Shown here: one piece after another, positions 978-8,379 of the stretch | How positions within the stretch are numbered: position 1 is the stretch's first letter | Layout: every line of letters starts with the position of its first letter | Origin: Escherichia coli | Lineage (GTDB): Bacteria > Pseudomonadota > Gammaproteobacteria > Enterobacterales > Enterobacteriaceae | Assembly (NCBI RefSeq): GCF_030013205.1 | Contig: NZ_CP122648.1 | Reading direction: 5' to 3' (one strand) | Length of the DNA stretch: 64,000 bases | Made by a program: the position numbers and the translations under genes | The notes under the pieces: generated by a model | The model's database searches: none | What the model was told of the DNA's origin: nothing | What the model saw: the letters and a program-made list of their open reading frames with translations, nothing else

Positions 978-1005
978 ACTTGGTGCCGAAGGCCGGACTC
1001 GAACC
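978..1005. repeat. 28-bp direct repeat of the leuX 3' end (island att site, distal copy)
   Basis: acttggtgccgaaggccggactcgaacc is identical to 8292-8319, which covers the 3' end of tRNA-Leu. Classic att duplication of a tRNA-integrated element. Confidence 0.85.
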
Positions 1006-1484
1006 TAAGTCTCTATAACCTGCTGTAATCACGTTCCTGTTAGCTGTTAAGAGAGCAATCGTAGGACCTTTTTGTTCTAGGGGCTACATATTAAGTTTGA
1101 TCCGCTGGACGGAATCAAACCGAGTGTTCGTGGCGGCATAAAACATCAACGTGCCATACCTGCCTTTTAATGTTTCTGGAGGTCTGCCGAGTCGGGAGGA
1201 AAGAACATTTGTCAGCTATGTGGACGTTGAATAAACGCCACTGCGTTCGGATTTTGAAACCAGTTAGACCCCGGCAGACCTTGTTCAGAATAACTATTTA
1301 ACTCAATGTTATTTATATGAATTAAGCCATTAAGAGCCAAAGCGAAACGCCACCGTAACGCACCCGCATTTTGCTGTTTTATTCACTCTTATAGAAACAA
1401 AGGGCTGATGAAACATAAGACTATCAGCATCTAATGAATACTGTTCATCCATACAGCATAAAAATTCATAAACTTACACTTGAG

Positions 1485-1949
1485 CTACTTTCTCAGTTTG
1501 TCCCACCGAACCGCTGATACGATACCCCAGTTGCCGCTAGGATTAGGCCTACGCCATTTTGCTGTCTCCATGCTACGAAGATACTCAAGAGCTTCAGCAA
1601 ACGTGCCAAAACGCTTCTGAGCCGCTTTATCACCTACGCCAAACGAACCATCACGGGTGCTCGCCAAACCGGGGTGAAAACAGGAACCATCGGCTGCGTA
1701 TGGAACCAACAGTTCCGAGTCGTTATCTTCAGATGGGCCAGGCGCTAACAACTGCCACGGCTCAACGCTCAGAGCGTTAGCCAGCACCTCAATCGCATCC
1801 AGAGACGCATTAGAGCCACCACGTTCAATTCTGCTCATATAACTACGTGCAAACCCGCACCGATCGGCAAAGGCCTCTTGGCTCAATCCGGTGGCAATGC
1901 GCAGTTCTTTTACCCGCTCGCCAAACTGTATTCTCAGGGATTTTTTCAT
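1485..1949 (-). CDS. XRE-family (Cro/C1-type) HTH transcriptional regulator with ~90-aa C-terminal domain of unknown function
   Basis: HTH_XRE motif IQFGERVKELRIATGLSQEAFADRCGFARSYMSRIERGGSNASLDAIEVLANAL. Start placed at internal MKKSL; the ORF track extends to 2042 but the extension precedes the HTH and looks spurious. Confidence 0.7.
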   Translation of the reverse strand: MKKSLRIQFGERVKELRIATGLSQEAFADRCGFARSYMSRIERGGSNASLDAIEVLANALSVEPWQLLAPGPSEDNDSELLVPYAADGSCFHPGLASTRDGSFGVGDKAAQKRFGTFAEALEYLRSMETAKWRRPNPSGNWGIVSAVRWDKLRK

Positions 1950-2199
1950 GCACTGAATGTGCAATTTTGACCACTGTAAGGCCACGCTCCATATGAGATA
2001 TTTTGAATCCAATCTCACTTCAGCGAGCTTAGTCACTAGCATTCATCGGCTGTATCATGACAATCCTTTTTGATTCAAAACAAACACCAATGGTGACATT
2101 TAAAACCCAACAAGTATGATGATCATCATCGGTTGGGCGTCACCAGCGTTCGCTATCAGGCGCGATGTGGTTTGGAAAGTGAGGGAATCATGACGGGAG

Positions 2200-2684
2200 C
2201 AGACTTTTTATTACCGATTGCAGCGGGAGCCGCGATTAGCTGGGCCAGTTATAGTGTAGTTGCCCATGCTGTATCAAAGCAGCACATCAGCACGCTACGC
2301 GCAACTGTATGGGGTGCTCTGGGCACTCTCTCATTGGTGCTGGGCGTATGCGCCTTTTCTGCTGTAGGTGCTGAGCATCAGACAGCACGAAAAGATATCG
2401 TATGTGCAGATGACAACCCGGAATGCTATGCGAAAACGCACCATAACCCGGTCAGGGAGTGCAAAAAGGTAATGGATGAGAAAGCGAAGTTTCGCCATGT
2501 GTGGCAAGAAAGCGAAGCGCCTGTATTTAATACTTATCTCTGGCACGATGAGAACGCGAAGATTATTCAGGCATTTGGGCAACAAGCTAAGGTAGTTAAC
2601 AGCCTGGGGATGCTAGCTCCGCTTCAATACTTTTGTGTTTTCAACGCAAAAACAGGAGAAGTCATTGCGGCCTCTTTCGAATAA
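2200..2684 (+). CDS. hypothetical membrane protein: two N-terminal TM helices plus Cys-containing soluble domain
   Basis: Start at MTGADF (ATG 2200) preceded by GAGGGAA RBS. Hydrophobic helices LLPIAAGAAISWASYSVVAHAV and VWGALGTLSLVLGVCAFSAVGA. No family recognised. Confidence 0.55.
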
Positions 2685-2744
2685 AAATGTGAGGGAATTC
2701 ACCCTAACATCAAAAATAAACTTATGTAATGACCTCGCATTTAA

Positions 2745-3590
2745 TTATTCATTTAAAGATTCAAGAAATGTCCAGCCTTTATGAGTAACATAATACATTT
2801 GTCCTTTTGCCCCTCTTTCAATCACAAAATCAAAGGATAACAGTTCGTTAAGTGCGCCCTCCCAACGGGCTACCTCTCTAGCCGAACTTCCACCAAAGGA
2901 TTGATTTCCCGCTTGAATATCCGTGCCACCTAAATGCCTTATCACATAAATTGTTCCGCTATCATCGACACATGCTAATTTCAGCAAACTGAGTGCATCG
3001 GCGGACAAATTACTTTCTGGCAAAGATTGACTTGTATTCGCATCAGGAGAATTGTTAATGGTAGATATAAGAGAAGACAAATAAGGGCTACTAGAAATAA
3101 TTATCGAAAGTTGCCTACGGACTTTTTCTTTGAAATCAGATAAGTCATTAAAAGACTCTATCAATCCCTTTTGCATGCACTCAGTTTTGAACAATTTAAG
3201 AGACTCATATTGTTCTCTATCAAGGCTTTCAGGGGCAACAGGCTTTGAGGAAAAGTAAATCATTGCCGGTTTTCCCGCATTCAAATGACGGTGGATTTCT
3301 TCGACTGTTCCGCTGGCCTCGTTCCCAGTCGGTGAGCCTAGACGAGTCCAAAACACACCGATTAATAAATCACAATCTACTAATAATCTTTGATTAATCA
3401 ACTCCTGAGGCCTAACTCCTAATTCGGGTGATGTATGAGTTTCCCATCCAATTGGTGTCAACATTACTTTTGAACGAGCTGAATTTATATCATTCCACTC
3501 ATGGATCATTTCACGAATGACTTGTCTCTCTTCAGCGACATCACCAGGAGAAGCAATCATTACAGGGATAACAGTTGCTGTGTAAGCCAT
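2745..3590 (-). CDS. hypothetical protein with DUF4062-like (TIR/flavodoxin-like) N-terminal domain and unknown C-terminal domain
   Basis: 281-aa ORF; N-terminal motif VIPVMIASPGDVAEERQVIREMI resembles the DUF4062 signature (hydrophobic strand-S-x-D-x-EER) from memory. GGAGAG RBS 7 nt upstream; start is 14 bp downstream of the recombinase stop. Confidence 0.5.
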   Translation of the reverse strand: MAYTATVIPVMIASPGDVAEERQVIREMIHEWNDINSARSKVMLTPIGWETHTSPELGVRPQELINQRLLVDCDLLIGVFWTRLGSPTGNEASGTVEEIHRHLNAGKPAMIYFSSKPVAPESLDREQYESLKLFKTECMQKGLIESFNDLSDFKEKVRRQLSIIISSSPYLSSLISTINNSPDANTSQSLPESNLSADALSLLKLACVDDSGTIYVIRHLGGTDIQAGNQSFGGSSAREVARWEGALNELLSFDFVIERGAKGQMYYVTHKGWTFLESLNE

Positions 3591-3603
3591 AAACTCTCCA
3601 TAT

Positions 3604-4164
3604 TCAATCGGTAATAGCTGCTACAGTCGCTCTTGAAACGCCATATTGACGCGCTAACGCACTGATACTCAAACCGCTATTCTTTTTCTCTAAAATCTCT
3701 CTACGGGCTTCTGACGCGATTTTAGGAGGTCTGCCCAATTTCTTACCTTCGGCTTTTGCTCGTGATAGTCCCGCCTGAGTGCGCTCAATCAGCAGATCAC
3801 GCTCCATCTCCGCAACCGCGGCGAGCATAGATAATAGCAACTTCCCAGCGGCAGAAGTGAGATCTGTGTTACCAAGCTGGTGGACAAGAACCTTGATATT
3901 ACGGTCAGCCAGCGCCCTTACCGTTTGCAAGACGTCAATCGCATCACGCCCCAGACGATCAAGCTTCGCTACCACCAACGTTTCACCATCGCGGATTTTA
4001 TTGAGCATTTCAGAAAATGCTTTACGTTGCATTGCCGGAACCTTCCCGCTAACAACATCGGCAAACCAGTAATCAATTTGCCACCCAGCCTGCCCAAGCT
4101 CCAGCCGTTGGTTCTCAGTATCCTGCTGCGATGTCGAAACACGTCCGTAGCCAAAAGTTGCCAT
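3604..4164 (-). CDS. small serine recombinase (resolvase/DNA invertase family)
   Basis: MATFGYGRVSTSQQD catalytic-Ser N-terminus, ...LDRLGRD..., C-terminal HTH (LSISALARQYGVSRATV). Start at internal Met; the track extension to 4233 precedes the conserved N-terminus. Confidence 0.85.
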   Translation of the reverse strand: MATFGYGRVSTSQQDTENQRLELGQAGWQIDYWFADVVSGKVPAMQRKAFSEMLNKIRDGETLVVAKLDRLGRDAIDVLQTVRALADRNIKVLVHQLGNTDLTSAAGKLLLSMLAAVAEMERDLLIERTQAGLSRAKAEGKKLGRPPKIASEARREILEKKNSGLSISALARQYGVSRATVAAITD

Positions 4165-4355
4165 TGTTATCTCCCCATCTGACCCCTGCCAGAAAACGAG
4201 GCCAACATTAGGATGGCCTGCCAGAAAAGCCAAGGCTATTTTTCCAACAGTGTGAAAGCGTGCGATTGGGAGGTGCCAGAAAACGGTCGTTTGTTGGCGC
4301 TTAAAACGGATAAAGACATGTTAGGCTGAAACCATCACTTCATAAGGACAACCGA

Positions 4356-4823
4356 AATGATTAAAGACGCGATTTTTCACCGTGCGGTCAATATCGCTAC
4401 TCGTTATCACGAGTCTGGGACGAATCAAAACCATATGCCCTTTTCATAGGGCTAAACCCTTCATACGCCGATGCTGAGAAGGATGATCGCACCTTGAGCC
4501 GCTGCATATCGTTTGCCAAAAGCAGGGGCTACGGTGGCGTATACATGGCCAACCTGTTCGCATTCGTTCACACCCAGCGACATGAAATGATGAAAGCGTC
4601 TGATCCCATTGGCAAAGATAACGATAGCCACTTGATACGTCTTGTTAGCGGTGCCGGACTGGTTGTCGCCGCATGGGGAAATGAAGGAAGACACCTCAAA
4701 CGCTCAACGACCGTCCGACAGCTATTGCCAGAGAGCACAATGTGCTTCGTCTTAAACGCTACAGGTGAGCCGAAGCACCCTTTGTATATGAAAAACGACA
4801 GTGTTCTCATACCTTTAGGTTAA
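4356..4823 (+). pseudogene. DUF1643-like gene, apparently frameshifted
   Basis: ATG near 4356 gives MIKDAIFHRAVNIATRYHESGTNQNH... then a stop. A different frame carries the conserved core ...FIGLNPSYADAEKDDRTLSRCISFAKSRGYGGVYMANLFA... through to the stop at 4823. One frame change around 4410-4440 is needed to join them; exact position uncertain by a few nt. Confidence 0.5.
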
Positions 4824-5828
4824 CATCGATAACTGCGTTCAGAATATGAACGCAGCCATATGATATATATGACTTTTCTTTAAAATGATGGTGTGCTAGC
4901 TTCTCTCCTGACACCTACCTCATGCGGTAAACCGGTCCGGGTAGGTGGAGATCACCGCTGTTTAGCGGAAGACGTCAGGATGGGAACTCTGCGTAACGTT
5001 GATTGTGGTAGGTAGGGCGCGCAAGCGTTTGATGCAGCCAAGCAGAGGGTGAAAGTAGCTATCGGCGGATTCTTGAGTAGCTTCTTTTGCGCATAATGCA
5101 TCTTTCAAGAAAGGTCGTCACACCACGAGGAAGACTTGATCTTCATCTGGCAAGGGGAACCGAGCAACCTACAGGCTATCTTCTCAGATGGCCTTATGGT
5201 TGATATGTCCGGCTTCCCCCCCGAGGAAGGGTTTACATCTTAAAGAACAAGTTATGTTTTAACATTTTTAACAATTACACTTCTCTGCTGTTTGGTGTCT
5301 TATGGCGTTGCCGTCAAAAGTAAACCTGCCGTTTTTACCTCTCCTGCGTAACAACCAAATACGAACCAGAAGCTGCTAACGTTCAACGTGTTCGCGGTGT
5401 AAATGCAGCCAGATAAGTTGGGAGCGAAAAAGTGGATGCCCTAGGTTTGGAAGCGCCCCTCTCAGGCATAGCGTCCGAAAATTTCCACGGCGGCAGGCTT
5501 ATCCTTATAGAGCCAAACAGACTCAAAAGTTAAGAAGCGCGGTAAAGCTTAAAGCTCGCCCAGATTTCTCATTGATTGCTCGAACTCCGCTACGCTTGTT
5601 TCAACTGGCTTCGCCAGTCACTCTATGAGAGCGCCGCGAATTCTGCACCATGATTTCGACTACCTTCTTTAAAACACTCGCCAGAGAGCCTTACAGCGCG
5701 TTTGAACCGCATATCGCAGCTTTTGCTTACGGATGACTGTCTGATTAGCAGTAGCTTCATGGCCCAGTCCGGTTTACTTTATTGCTATCAACAAGGGAGC
5801 CGTCCAGAGGCGACGCGGAGATAATGCT

Positions 5829-6161
5829 TTGAGAACCGTCGAGATACTGCAATACACCTTACGCAAAGGCAGCGGTGCCGCTTTTCACGCCATTATGCAG
5901 GAAATCAGTGTTCCCCTACACCAACGCCACGGGATCGATGTTGTTTCGTTTGGTAACTCTCTGCATGACCCGGACTGCTATTACCTGATTCGCGCCTTTG
6001 TCAGCCCTAAAAGCATGACTACGGTTCTCGACGCTTTTTACGCAAGCGATGACTGGCGCAGCGGCCCGCGCGAAGACATCATTGGCAACATAGAGGCCAG
6101 CATTAAAACAGTGATAAATCTACCATCAGAAAGCGTAGAAGGGCTGCGGGTGCAATCGTAG
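5829..6161 (+). CDS. NIPSNAP/dimeric alpha-beta-barrel-like small protein
   Basis: 110 aa, TTG start with GGAG 8 nt upstream. Sequence pattern (EILQYTLRKG...YYLIRAF...DDW) resembles the NIPSNAP family from memory. Confidence 0.5.
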   Translation: MRTVEILQYTLRKGSGAAFHAIMQEISVPLHQRHGIDVVSFGNSLHDPDCYYLIRAFVSPKSMTTVLDAFYASDDWRSGPREDIIGNIEASIKTVINLPSESVEGLRVQS

Positions 6162-6293
6162 GTCATCAAGTTTCACCAAACGTGTTTTGAGCGTCTCCAA
6201 ATTCAGCACTATGAAATCCACCACCCTTAATAAAAAACGCGCCAGGAAGCGTCCCAGCGCATTCAAGCATCACTCAACTGAATAGTAACTGAT

Positions 6294-8246
6294 TCAACCT
6301 GTTTGTTTGCCACGCTTTCTTCGCAACGCATCTCTGACAGCATCCAGCCCGTCAGGAATGTTGAATTCCGCTATATCAGGTAACGAAAAATCAATTTTCT
6401 CCACGACTTCAATCATATGAATTGGTTTGAGGTCTTTGCTATATCGCACTTCCGTTTCAGTTTCGCCGCGCACATGCCCAAGTAGCTGCGCTCGTAATTC
6501 TGAGCTAACGCCCTTCTCCTTGAGCAAAGTCGAAACTGAGTGGCGAAAAGAATGGAAAGATTTGCTTCTGTTCCTCTCGAGTTTCAACCGCCCCGCAAGC
6601 AACGATTCATTGAACCATGCGGAAACTGGCCTACCATAGCCTTTTGTTTTATGTGGTTTAAGCTCCGGGAAGAGACGGGTATACCCTGCATCTTTTAAGG
6701 CGTTCACGTAGTCGATGAAACCGAGACTAATCAGCTTTGAATGGAGCGGAATCTTGCGGCGAGCATTAGCATTTTTGAGTTTCTTTCCGCTTTCATTATC
6801 GCTTTCAAGGTTCAAATAATAGACGCCGTCGTCTGCCAGAACATCACTCAGCAGTAACTGAGCGATTTCATTAACTCGCGCCCCCGTCATCAAGCCCAGC
6901 AAAGGTGCCCAATAGTTAAACGGGCAATATTGATGGAATCGCCCTTGCGCATTGCGTTCAACAGTTCCAGCCTCAAACCACGGTAACGAAAAAATCGCTT
7001 TAATTTCATGCGGTTCAAATATGTCAGTGTGATCCTGATCTCGCTCATCTTTATCATCGGATGGAAAAAAGTTTTCGCATGGCGATTTCAGTAGCTTACC
7101 GTCAGCAACAGCCCACTTCATTGCACCATAAATGCCGTTGATATACTTCCTAACGGATTCCTCAGTCATCAATTTATCGCCGCATTCTGCCGCTTTGGCG
7201 ATTAACTGATCCAGCGTTTTCACTCCATATTTAGCTTTGACTAAATTACGGTTTGCTGGGATCGTGCGCAGTTTGCTCTCATAAGCCCGGAGGAAATCGC
7301 GATCAAAATCTTCCAACTGAATGTCACCCATCGCTTCGATCATAAAGCTGAAATAGTTACGGATATCACTTATAGCCGACTCCGATACCTTGCCCTTGCG
7401 CCGATGCTTTAGATATTCAGAGCATAACCACGACAGATTCTTAGTGTAATACTTTCGATTAACATACTCGTTATCGATAGTAGGGGCAGGAGCGGCAAGA
7501 GGCACGGTAGGATGAACACTAGCGACTGGAGGCGTGGTCTTAGCCAGCCAATCAAGCCTTAGGCTTTCTGCATGGACTTTATTGATCAAAAGCGTATCGG
7601 GTTTAATTACCGGCCAACCGGAGGTGAAAAACCAACCGCCTTTAGCGTCGCTTCCGGCAGTTTTGAACACCGAAGCTTCTGAATAACCGTCGCTAATAAT
7701 GTTACGTAAATGTGCTGGTTGCGCAGTGAGTTGCAGATAGCCTTTAGCAACCCCCTCGATACCCTTCTCTTCGCCATAATTAAGAACGTAACTGCCATCA
7801 AGCGGGTCTAGCTCAGCCTCAGAGAGCGCTGCAACATAAAAGCCAGCCTGCCCCGTCGCCAGCCAGAATACGGGCAGATTACGGTTCATCACCGCCTGTA
7901 TTAATTGCGCAACAGGCAACTCAACTGACTGAGCAAAGTTAGAAAGCGAGATCATACCCTCACCAGCAAGCAGCGGGGCGCAGTCACTTAAAGTTCGATA
8001 ATCCAATTGTTCATACTCTTGTAAGGTCTGATACCAGACCGCCAACAGGAGCGCGGACTTCTGCTTTGCTTCATGAAGATCGTGAGTGCCTGTTGAAGTG
8101 TGAATCTCACACTGTCCTGCGTATCGACGAAAACGTTGGGGAATGCTAATGCGGACAACATAAATGCCGCTGGTTCGACGATAGAGTTTATATCGCTGAG
8201 ACATCGCCTCGTATACCCTTTTGTAAGAGGGGCTACGCGATTTCAA
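6294..8246 (-). CDS. tyrosine-type site-specific integrase (650 aa, unusually long)
   Basis: C-terminal catalytic region HSFRHSVSTLL...LLGH...; lambda-like arm-binding N-terminus (YKLYRRTSGIYVVRISIP); directly adjacent to tRNA-Leu. A ~250-aa central region is of unclear homology. Confidence 0.85.
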   Translation of the reverse strand: MKSRSPSYKRVYEAMSQRYKLYRRTSGIYVVRISIPQRFRRYAGQCEIHTSTGTHDLHEAKQKSALLLAVWYQTLQEYEQLDYRTLSDCAPLLAGEGMISLSNFAQSVELPVAQLIQAVMNRNLPVFWLATGQAGFYVAALSEAELDPLDGSYVLNYGEEKGIEGVAKGYLQLTAQPAHLRNIISDGYSEASVFKTAGSDAKGGWFFTSGWPVIKPDTLLINKVHAESLRLDWLAKTTPPVASVHPTVPLAAPAPTIDNEYVNRKYYTKNLSWLCSEYLKHRRKGKVSESAISDIRNYFSFMIEAMGDIQLEDFDRDFLRAYESKLRTIPANRNLVKAKYGVKTLDQLIAKAAECGDKLMTEESVRKYINGIYGAMKWAVADGKLLKSPCENFFPSDDKDERDQDHTDIFEPHEIKAIFSLPWFEAGTVERNAQGRFHQYCPFNYWAPLLGLMTGARVNEIAQLLLSDVLADDGVYYLNLESDNESGKKLKNANARRKIPLHSKLISLGFIDYVNALKDAGYTRLFPELKPHKTKGYGRPVSAWFNESLLAGRLKLERNRSKSFHSFRHSVSTLLKEKGVSSELRAQLLGHVRGETETEVRYSKDLKPIHMIEVVEKIDFSLPDIAEFNIPDGLDAVRDALRRKRGKQTG

Positions 8247-8294
8247 GCAAAATTATGGATTAAATTGTTTTAAAACAACGACTTAGATAAGACT

Positions 8295-8379
8295 TGGTGC
8301 CGAAGGCCGGACTCGAACCGGCACGTATTTCTACGGTTGATTTTGAATCAACTGCGTCTACCGATTTCGCCACTTCGGC
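8295..8379 (-). tRNA. leuX: tRNA-Leu (CAA), leuX
   Basis: Reverse complement reads GCCGAAGTGGCGAAATCGGTAGACGCAGTTGATTCAAAATCAACCGTAGAAATACGTGCCGGTTCGAGTCCGGCCTTCGGCACCA (85 nt, CAA anticodon, CCA end). Confidence 0.95.

Follow-up and report, generated by a model that had tools for sequence, protein, structure and literature searches.

Three copies of the decamer TGCCAGAAAA upstream of a small serine recombinase gene in Escherichia coli are, with a probability of roughly 80%, the high-affinity half-sites of a Tn3-type res site (positions 4187 to 4299) that would be bound by the adjacent resolvase-like recombinase, a reading drawn from sequence comparison. The window, by which we mean the whole 64-kb stretch of DNA analyzed, contains exact copies of the decamer on the plus strand at 4187 to 4196, 4219 to 4228, and 4274 to 4283, with start-to-start spacings of 32 and 55 bp. 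Extended to 12 nucleotides, two of the three repeats read CCTGCCAGAAAA and one reads GGTGCCAGAAAA. A fourth exact copy, at 8987, is isolated inside ahr. In 100 dinucleotide-preserving shuffles, the count averaged 0.17 ± 0.38 and never rose to the four found in the window; thus, as a preliminary description of this DNA had claimed, the three copies are beyond chance.

The repeats lie 23 to 110 bp upstream of the recombinase gene, between its ATG at 4164 (minus strand) and a divergent DUF1643 pseudogene (4357 to 4823, plus strand). The longest mechanical open reading frame for the recombinase begins with a TTG at 4233 and would overlap two of the repeats. The RefSeq annotation and residue 1 of γδ resolvase agree on a start at 4164, however, and because that start is supported by homology, all three repeats are intergenic. 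The arrangement first described, with the repeats upstream of the recombinase and facing the DUF1643 gene, is therefore borne out.

The adjacent gene (3604 to 4164, minus strand) encodes WP_000190110.1, a small serine recombinase of the resolvase type with 186 amino acids and a C-terminal helix-turn-helix (HTH), named simply "recombinase family protein" in RefSeq. Full-length alignment matched it to γδ resolvase (E = 1.4e-25), to Tn3 resolvase (E = 2.5e-22), and to the Gin invertase in the PDB (E = 6.5e-23); Sin was a weaker match (E = 1.9e-14). The alignments with 2gm4, 1gdt, and 5cy1 run end to end. A search of NCBIfam returned no family-level name for the protein, as every hit was far below cutoff, the best of them being the Mpi invertase family. 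The catalytic N-terminal domain, the E-helix, and the C-terminal HTH that define the small serine recombinase family are all present. Moreover, the catalytic residues S10, R8, D67, R68, and R71 are retained, and the motifs YGRVSTSQQ, which includes the nucleophilic S10, and KLDRLGRD are intact. Residues R2, R32, and E56 of the γδ R interface are replaced in the alignment by A, Y, and R, respectively, and the synapse of this recombinase may therefore be built differently from that of γδ.

The organization of the intergenic region resembles that of a known class of recombination site. Sites of the Tn3 family are about 120 bp long and lie upstream of the resolvase gene. They have three subsites, each assembled from 12-bp motifs in inverted orientation; box III adjoins the start codon, and box I is the farthest from it. 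The predicted site in the window is 113 bp long on the plus strand, and its subsites come in the order III, II, I with increasing distance from the recombinase gene; subsite III begins 23 bp from the ATG, and subsite I lies 110 bp off. Subsite III (4187 to 4211) consists of a strong half, TGCCAGAAAACG, at 4187 to 4198, which is the first repeat, and a second half, GGCCAACATTAG, at 4200 to 4211, which is directly oriented and degenerate in the window. Subsite II (4219 to 4249) is 31 bp in total and is made of the left half TGCCAGAAAAGC, which is the second repeat, a 7-bp center, and the inverted right half ATTTTTCCAACA. A T-tract accompanies its right half, the spacer is long and T rich, and the center, GCCAAGGCTA, is invariant across six aligned E. 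coli islands. Finally, subsite I (4274 to 4299), the presumed crossover site, reads TGCCAGAAAACG-GT-CGTTTGTTGGCG, its left half being the third repeat. It is palindromic in a 12-2-12 format, with symmetry at 9 of 12 positions, and the central GT at 4286 to 4287 is the putative point of strand exchange.

The correspondence with Tn3 and γδ extends to geometry. In Tn3-family res sites, the centers of subsites I and II are an integral number of helical turns apart, usually about five, and the 2 bp in the middle of site I are where cleavage occurs. The centers here are separated by 52.5 bp (4286.5 minus 4234), or about five turns. The spacing of I and II, the subsite order, and the location upstream of the gene agree with res of SGI1 as well as with that of Tn3 and γδ. 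Tn3 res has a 22-bp linker between sites I and II and a conserved A-tract in site II; if boundaries are drawn in the Tn3 style, the linker here is likewise 22 bp, and site II likewise carries an A/T tract. Also shared with Tn3 and γδ are homology over the full length of the recombinase, a res site upstream of the gene with III proximal and I distal, three dimer-binding subsites (predicted here) of 12-bp motifs with outer ends TG(T/C)C, and a promoter (putative here) over the accessory sites. The details differ. Site I is 26 bp here and 28 bp in Tn3, site II measures 31 bp here and 34 bp there, and site III is a direct repeat (a 31-bp inverted one in one clade) where Tn3 has a 25-bp inverted repeat. 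Moreover, the central dinucleotide is GT instead of AT, and the R-interface residues are not conserved.

The layout is widely conserved. We collected 80 loci encoding relatives of the recombinase (60 to 100% identity) from Enterobacterales, Pseudomonas, many Oxalobacteraceae, and other taxa, which together with the window gave 81 upstream regions. A 12-2-12 palindrome at a fixed distance upstream of the recombinase gene was found in 67 of the 81, and these 67, from dozens of species of gamma- and betaproteobacteria, have the three-subsite layout. Conservation in homologous islands, which the preliminary description had put forward as a check on the repeats, is thus what we find. Each region's own site I half-site was then used as a probe, with offsets counted from the left end of site I. 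Forward matches occurred at −87/−86 in 58 of the 67 regions (first half of subsite III, 4187 in the window), at −74/−73 in 30 (second half of subsite III, 4200), and at −56/−55 in 60 (left half of subsite II, 4219). Reverse matches occurred at −25/−24 in 49 regions (right half of subsite II, 4249) and at −57/−56 in 15, and any offset beyond these five gave a match in at most 4 regions. The offsets are constant within 1 bp between clades, and subsite III is proximal and subsite I distal throughout the 67 regions.

Subsites I and II are clear inverted pairs throughout, and subsite III is the variable element. Its second half is direct in 30 of the 67 regions, inverted in 15, and degenerate in the window: one large group has a direct half-site repeat, clearest in locus L034 (TGTTAGAAAACGG followed by TGTCAGAATAT), and the TGTTCA clade has an inverted 31-bp pair. 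The central dinucleotide of subsite I is GT in 44 of the 67 regions. Half-site sequences differ by clade (TGCCAGAAA, TGTTAGAAA, and TGTTCAAAA), and the half-site classes TGCC, TGTT-RG, and TGTTCA follow the recognition-helix sequences SRAT, SRAN, and SRAS, respectively. The covariation agrees with the recombinase being the protein that would bind the half-sites, but it is confounded with phylogeny.

The accessory subsites may also control the recombinase gene. A putative recombinase promoter on the minus strand (4205 to 4233) has the −35 element TTGGCT (4233 to 4228), a 17-bp spacer, and the −10 element TAATGT (4210 to 4205), such that the putative −35 falls in the center of subsite II and the putative −10 falls inside subsite III. 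The candidate is weak, matching the sigma-70 consensus at 7 of 12 positions, and a standard promoter/terminator scan of 4100 to 4420 with the default consensus found nothing. When the scan was relaxed and applied to the 67 regions, sigma-70-like candidates clustered at the promoter offset, with the best candidate there in 45. A promoter-like element over sites II and III suggests that the recombinase represses its own expression, and the placement matches that reported over the accessory sites of Tn3, γδ, and SGI1. Either recombinase subsites or operator repeats had been suggested initially as the role of the decamers, and the two roles together would fit, as in Tn3.

The recombinase and its putative site reside in a genomic island. 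The island is about 7.3 kb (1006 to 8291) and is bounded by 28-bp att direct repeats, one at the 3' end of leuX (8292 to 8319) and a distal copy at 978 to 1005 (plus strand); leuX itself is the tRNA-Leu(CAA) gene at 8295 to 8379 of this E. coli chromosome stretch. Proceeding inward from leuX, the island contains an integrase gene, a NIPSNAP gene, a 1-kb stretch free of open reading frames, the DUF1643 pseudogene, the repeats, and the recombinase gene, and beyond the recombinase lie a DUF4062/PDC-S60-like gene (2745 to 3590), a membrane protein gene, and an HTH gene (1485 to 2042). The integrase is a tyrosine-type site-specific enzyme (6294 to 8246, minus strand) that adjoins the tRNA-Leu gene, outermost in the right arm, and the HTH gene recurs at the end of the enterobacterial and Pseudomonas islands. 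Thus, unlike Tn3 and γδ, which are transposons, the present site is accompanied by no Tn3-family transposase and lies instead in a tRNA-integrating island with a tyrosine integrase. We considered whether the island might be a Tn3-family transposon nonetheless, an element with a large DDE transposase (TnpA) and terminal inverted repeats of 38 to 40 bp, and rejected that classification, as 1006 to 8291 contains no open reading frame of about 1,000 amino acids and the bounds are att direct repeats. In O157:H7 Sakai, the island's counterpart is annotated as the phage-like element SpLE5.

Several features of the island and its relatives deserve mention in their own right. The integrase has 650 amino acids and no NCBIfam match, and its relatives on sister islands, with identities of just 36 to 66%, lie beside tRNA loci of several kinds (Leu, Gly, and a Thr-adjacent locus). 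The DUF1643 gene (4357 to 4823, plus strand), the first of the right arm, is frameshifted in the window and in many other strains and is intact, at 155 amino acids, in O157:H7; a PADLOC search with it gave no match. The stretch of about 1 kb between the DUF1643 and NIPSNAP genes (4824 to 5828) has no open reading frame of at least 50 amino acids and is about 92% conserved, though unannotated, in O157, and an Rfam scan of the island returned the tRNA only, with nothing in 4824 to 5828. To the left of 978 lies an older, decayed island (AbiJ-NTD4 and IS30), and thus leuX carries a tandem array.

Antiphage defense genes are found on both sides of the res-like site. Adjacent to site I, related islands carry GajA/GajB (Gabija), PDC-S06, a type II methyltransferase, or HamB-like or PbeA-like genes. 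Between the recombinase and HTH genes, related islands carry DRT9 or SIR2/REase-like genes, and the window carries its PDC-S60-like gene. The latter interval, from the 3' end of the recombinase gene to the membrane protein and HTH genes, is a second variable cargo slot (2745 to 3590 in the window; also loci L008, L009, L010, L014, L018, and L022), occupied in the window by the DUF4062/PDC-S60-like gene; the other islands have DRT9, SIR2/REase-like genes, or unknown genes there. Among E. coli defense islands, a survey noted some having only an integrase or a recombinase, the mobilization of which was unclear.

Homology between related islands is lost abruptly within subsite I. In the alignment of six E. 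coli islands, homology of the window with E500002 and NU14 ends immediately after AACGGTCG. Flanks were then compared pairwise among 23 enterobacterial and Pseudomonas loci. In 28 locus pairs, the left flanks are at least 93% identical and the right flanks are unrelated, with identity running 4 to 17 bp past the center of the site; 11 locus pairs have the reverse pattern, with right flanks alike and left flanks differing. The window and E. coli E500002 (L002) are 100% identical over 700 bp on the left and 99.2% identical over 3.3 kb, and by sliding identity they are random-like on the right from +5 onward, the first mismatch being at 4290. Conversely, loci L017 and L022 are 99.7 to 100% identical over 700 bp on the right and about 82% identical on the left, and O157 (L005) and an Enterobacter (L015) exhibit the same switch, with 98 to 100% identity on the right and about 82 to 85% on the left. 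In these two pairs, divergence on the left starts at −7 or −8, the first mismatch being at 4279 or 4278 (4279 for L017 and L022). We infer that the exchange interval is bracketed to 4280 to 4289 (AAAACG-GT-CG), around the GT at 4286 to 4287. The signal of replaced right arms is strong, and cases of the same right arm with a different left arm amount to a few locus pairs.

The sequences on either side of the breaks bear on how the arms were joined. Every right arm bears its own, different right half-site (for example, CGATTGATGACA, CGATTTCTTACA, and CGTTTACTGGCA), and therefore the arms derive from complete partner sites and not from random insertions. Moreover, the 10-bp common core is too short for homologous recombination. 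Together, the homology breaks are what crossovers by a resolvase at site I would be expected to produce, which suggests that such crossovers took place. Exchange of cargo through res subsite I has likewise been proposed for Tn3-family transposons from a break in homology there, and cargo exchange at subsite I would be another likeness to Tn3 and γδ.

The same breakpoint is evident at the population level. The module is present in 744 of 5,426 complete E. coli genomes (about 14%), including O157:H7, Nissle 1917, and ATCC 25922. The DUF1643 arm is found in 595 of the 744, all of them collinear; about 149 diverge at 4292 to 4298, and 90 have the E500002 arm. Structural heterogeneity at the locus had been suggested as a check, and E. 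coli genomes differ in structure exactly at the res-like site. No clean four-gamete set was found among the compared loci. The TGGTGTTGA arm, seemingly common to L010 and L016, was rejected for the four-gamete test, as the shared segment is only 30 bp, and the sharp transitions in identity of L017/L022, L005/L015, and window/L002 were used in place of that test. A search of E. coli for the reciprocal recombinant, in which the arm with the 915-bp hypothetical gene would be joined to a different recombinase arm, found none, and the 915-bp hypothetical genes of E500002 and NU14 have no similarity at the DNA level.

One genome examined carries the module twice. In NRZ101721 (L091), identical left arms comprising recombinase and res lie in direct orientation 17 kb apart (2282 to 3000 and 19515 to 20251) and flank the fec operon. 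The right half of site I is incomplete at the second copy, its outermost 2 bp having given way to the end of an IS1. We considered the pair as an array of tandem islands that could serve as a substrate but rejected it, as the second copy arose via IS1. That two direct copies persist is weak evidence against activity.

How the site would function can be proposed as follows. Recombinase dimers would bind all three subsites, and when two direct copies of res are present on one molecule, the accessory subsites would assemble a synapse, strands would be exchanged at the central GT of subsite I, and the intervening DNA would be deleted. Two copies would come together in cointegrates, in island dimers, or where islands lie in tandem at a single tRNA gene, and remnants of tandem islands are seen at the window's locus. 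In the usual single-copy state, the bound protein would only repress the putative promoter of its gene over subsites II and III; that is, the resting res would act only as an operator because there is one copy per locus. Resolution between nonidentical tandem islands would give the reassortment of arms that is observed. Over evolution, crossovers at subsite I would have reassorted an arm comprising the integrase and cargo with an arm comprising the recombinase, cargo, and the HTH gene, both of which often carry antiphage defense genes.

Perhaps, instead, the site is a relic that acts solely as an operator, such that the recombinase, or what remains of its DNA-binding function, binds the repeats only to repress its own gene and the divergent one and recombination has been lost. 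Loss of recombination would agree with the single copy of res at each locus, with the promoter-like element over sites II and III, and with the two direct copies retained in NRZ101721, and TnpR of Tn3 was itself first named as a repressor acting at res. The recombinase, however, is full length with its catalytic residues intact, 67 regions preserve the perfect 12-2-12 arrangement of site I even though repression would not need it, and homology switches abruptly inside site I in many independent combinations. We consider a relic unlikely. The site might alternatively capture DNA, in the manner of an integron or an integrase, by intermolecular insertion of circular cargo bearing a matching site. 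Right arms are very diverse and each has its own right half-site, the arms are joined to integrases only 36 to 66% identical that target different tRNA genes, and some copies of site I are hybrid (L037, L038, and L060), all of which capture could produce. Nevertheless, a hallmark of topologically filtered, intramolecular resolution is the presence of accessory subsites II and III spaced as in Tn3, and small resolvases form cointegrates only under special circumstances. Moreover, no cassette-like second site was found to bound the cargo within 8 kb on either side, and capture seems quite improbable.

Hin- and Gin-type DNA invertases recombine at hix and gix sites, which have a 12-2-12, 26-bp format. 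Site I has that format, Gin is nearly as good a match to the recombinase as the resolvases are (E = 6.5e-23), and the best NCBIfam hit, far below cutoff, is the Mpi invertase family, such that the 26-bp palindrome might be a hix-like site at which inversion controls a neighboring gene. A switch of that kind would need a second, inverted site, but no second site I-like palindrome was found within 8 kb on either side of the 67 loci or in the 64-kb window, and because none was found, we reject both the invertase and the cassette readings. All 595 E. coli genomes carrying the DUF1643 arm are collinear, and three subsites are a resolvase feature; an invertase switch is very unlikely. Finally, the repeats could be operators for another regulator unrelated to the recombinase, for example, the HTH protein encoded at 1485 to 2042, the gene for which is conserved at the island end in enterobacterial and Pseudomonas islands. 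The fixed offsets of the repeats, however, persist in distant relatives in which no HTH homolog is detectable, and the half-site class covaries with the recognition helix of the recombinase. We give an unrelated regulator almost no credence. A Tn3-type res for the adjacent recombinase, with repression by the bound protein at rest, accommodates the evidence best.

Recombination sites and resolvases have been reported on an integrative island before. SGI1 has a functional Tn3-like res/resolvase system, the restored form of which eliminates island concatemers. Like the present island, SGI1 combines a Tn3-like, three-subsite res with a small serine resolvase (Res/S027) encoded downstream of it, its central dinucleotide is nonpalindromic (AC, or GT when read from the complementary strand), and its box III is weakly symmetric. 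SGI1 differs, however, in that it replicates, is mobilized by IncC plasmids, and usually has a res-hunter integron interrupting its res, whereas the present island is about 7 kb, has no detected replication or transfer genes, and has defense genes as neighbors. An accessory subsite with direct half-sites, here site III in 30 of the 67 regions, is reminiscent of Sin and β recombinase. Sin nonetheless uses two subsites and a site for a host bending protein, whereas three subsites with Tn3 spacing are found here. If our reading is correct, an anonymous repeat becomes a defined candidate recombination site, with three subsites, a crossover dinucleotide, and an overlapping promoter, and the island would represent the second genomic island family, after SGI1, to have a Tn3-like resolution system.

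A 2025 preprint on RADS reported that small serine recombinases mark diverse antiphage defense loci, for reasons that were only hypothesized. The islands studied here similarly have a small serine recombinase beside defense genes (Gabija, PDC-S06, DRT9, a methyltransferase, and a SIR2-like gene). The RADS work used an Enterococcus bait and reported no recombination site, whereas a predicted res site and comparative evidence of crossovers are described here for a proteobacterial family. If the homology breaks are real resolvase crossovers, the site would be a hotspot that reassorts defense cargo between islands, with implications for how defense islands are assembled and why serine recombinases mark them. 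We speculate further, and tentatively, with the odds against it, that the res-resolvase module serves as an exchange point for defense-loaded arms across integrases, tRNA targets, and genera, beyond the housekeeping resolution of multimers. Were that so, it would provide a concrete mechanism both for the unexplained linkage of serine recombinases to defense and for the islands that have only an integrase or a recombinase.

Certain loci in the comparison are unusual. Hybrid copies of site I, in which the two halves belong to different half-site classes, lie about 110 bp upstream of the recombinase start in L037, L038, and L060. In the Massilia locus L060, site I reads TGTTGGAAATCG-GT-CGATTGTTGGCA, with a right half that matches the one in the enterobacterial locus L011 exactly. 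Hybrid copies may be a trace of exchange between clades. Four loci are labeled as a Collinsella metagenome-assembled genome (MAG) (L007), Martelella alba (L010), a Bacillota MAG (L019), and Chryseobacterium (L022), yet each contains the enterobacterial island with 84 to 100% protein identity, and L007 is 99 to 100% identical to the window for all seven island proteins compared. The off-taxon labels likely reflect misbinning or contamination.

The arms joined at site I include some with peculiarities. In E. coli E500002 and ECONIH4 (L002 and L087; about 90 genomes), the same left arm as in the window is followed at site I by a 2.3-kb arm that lacks an integrase and encodes a hypothetical protein of 304 amino acids. 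Within that arm, the 460 bp nearest leuX are homologous to positions 516 to 977 of the window, which lie outside the window's island. Finally, the motif GTTGAAC-N-C-(T)ATAGC, located 3 to 20 bp to the right of site I, is common to the otherwise different arms of L010, L013, L014, and L016.
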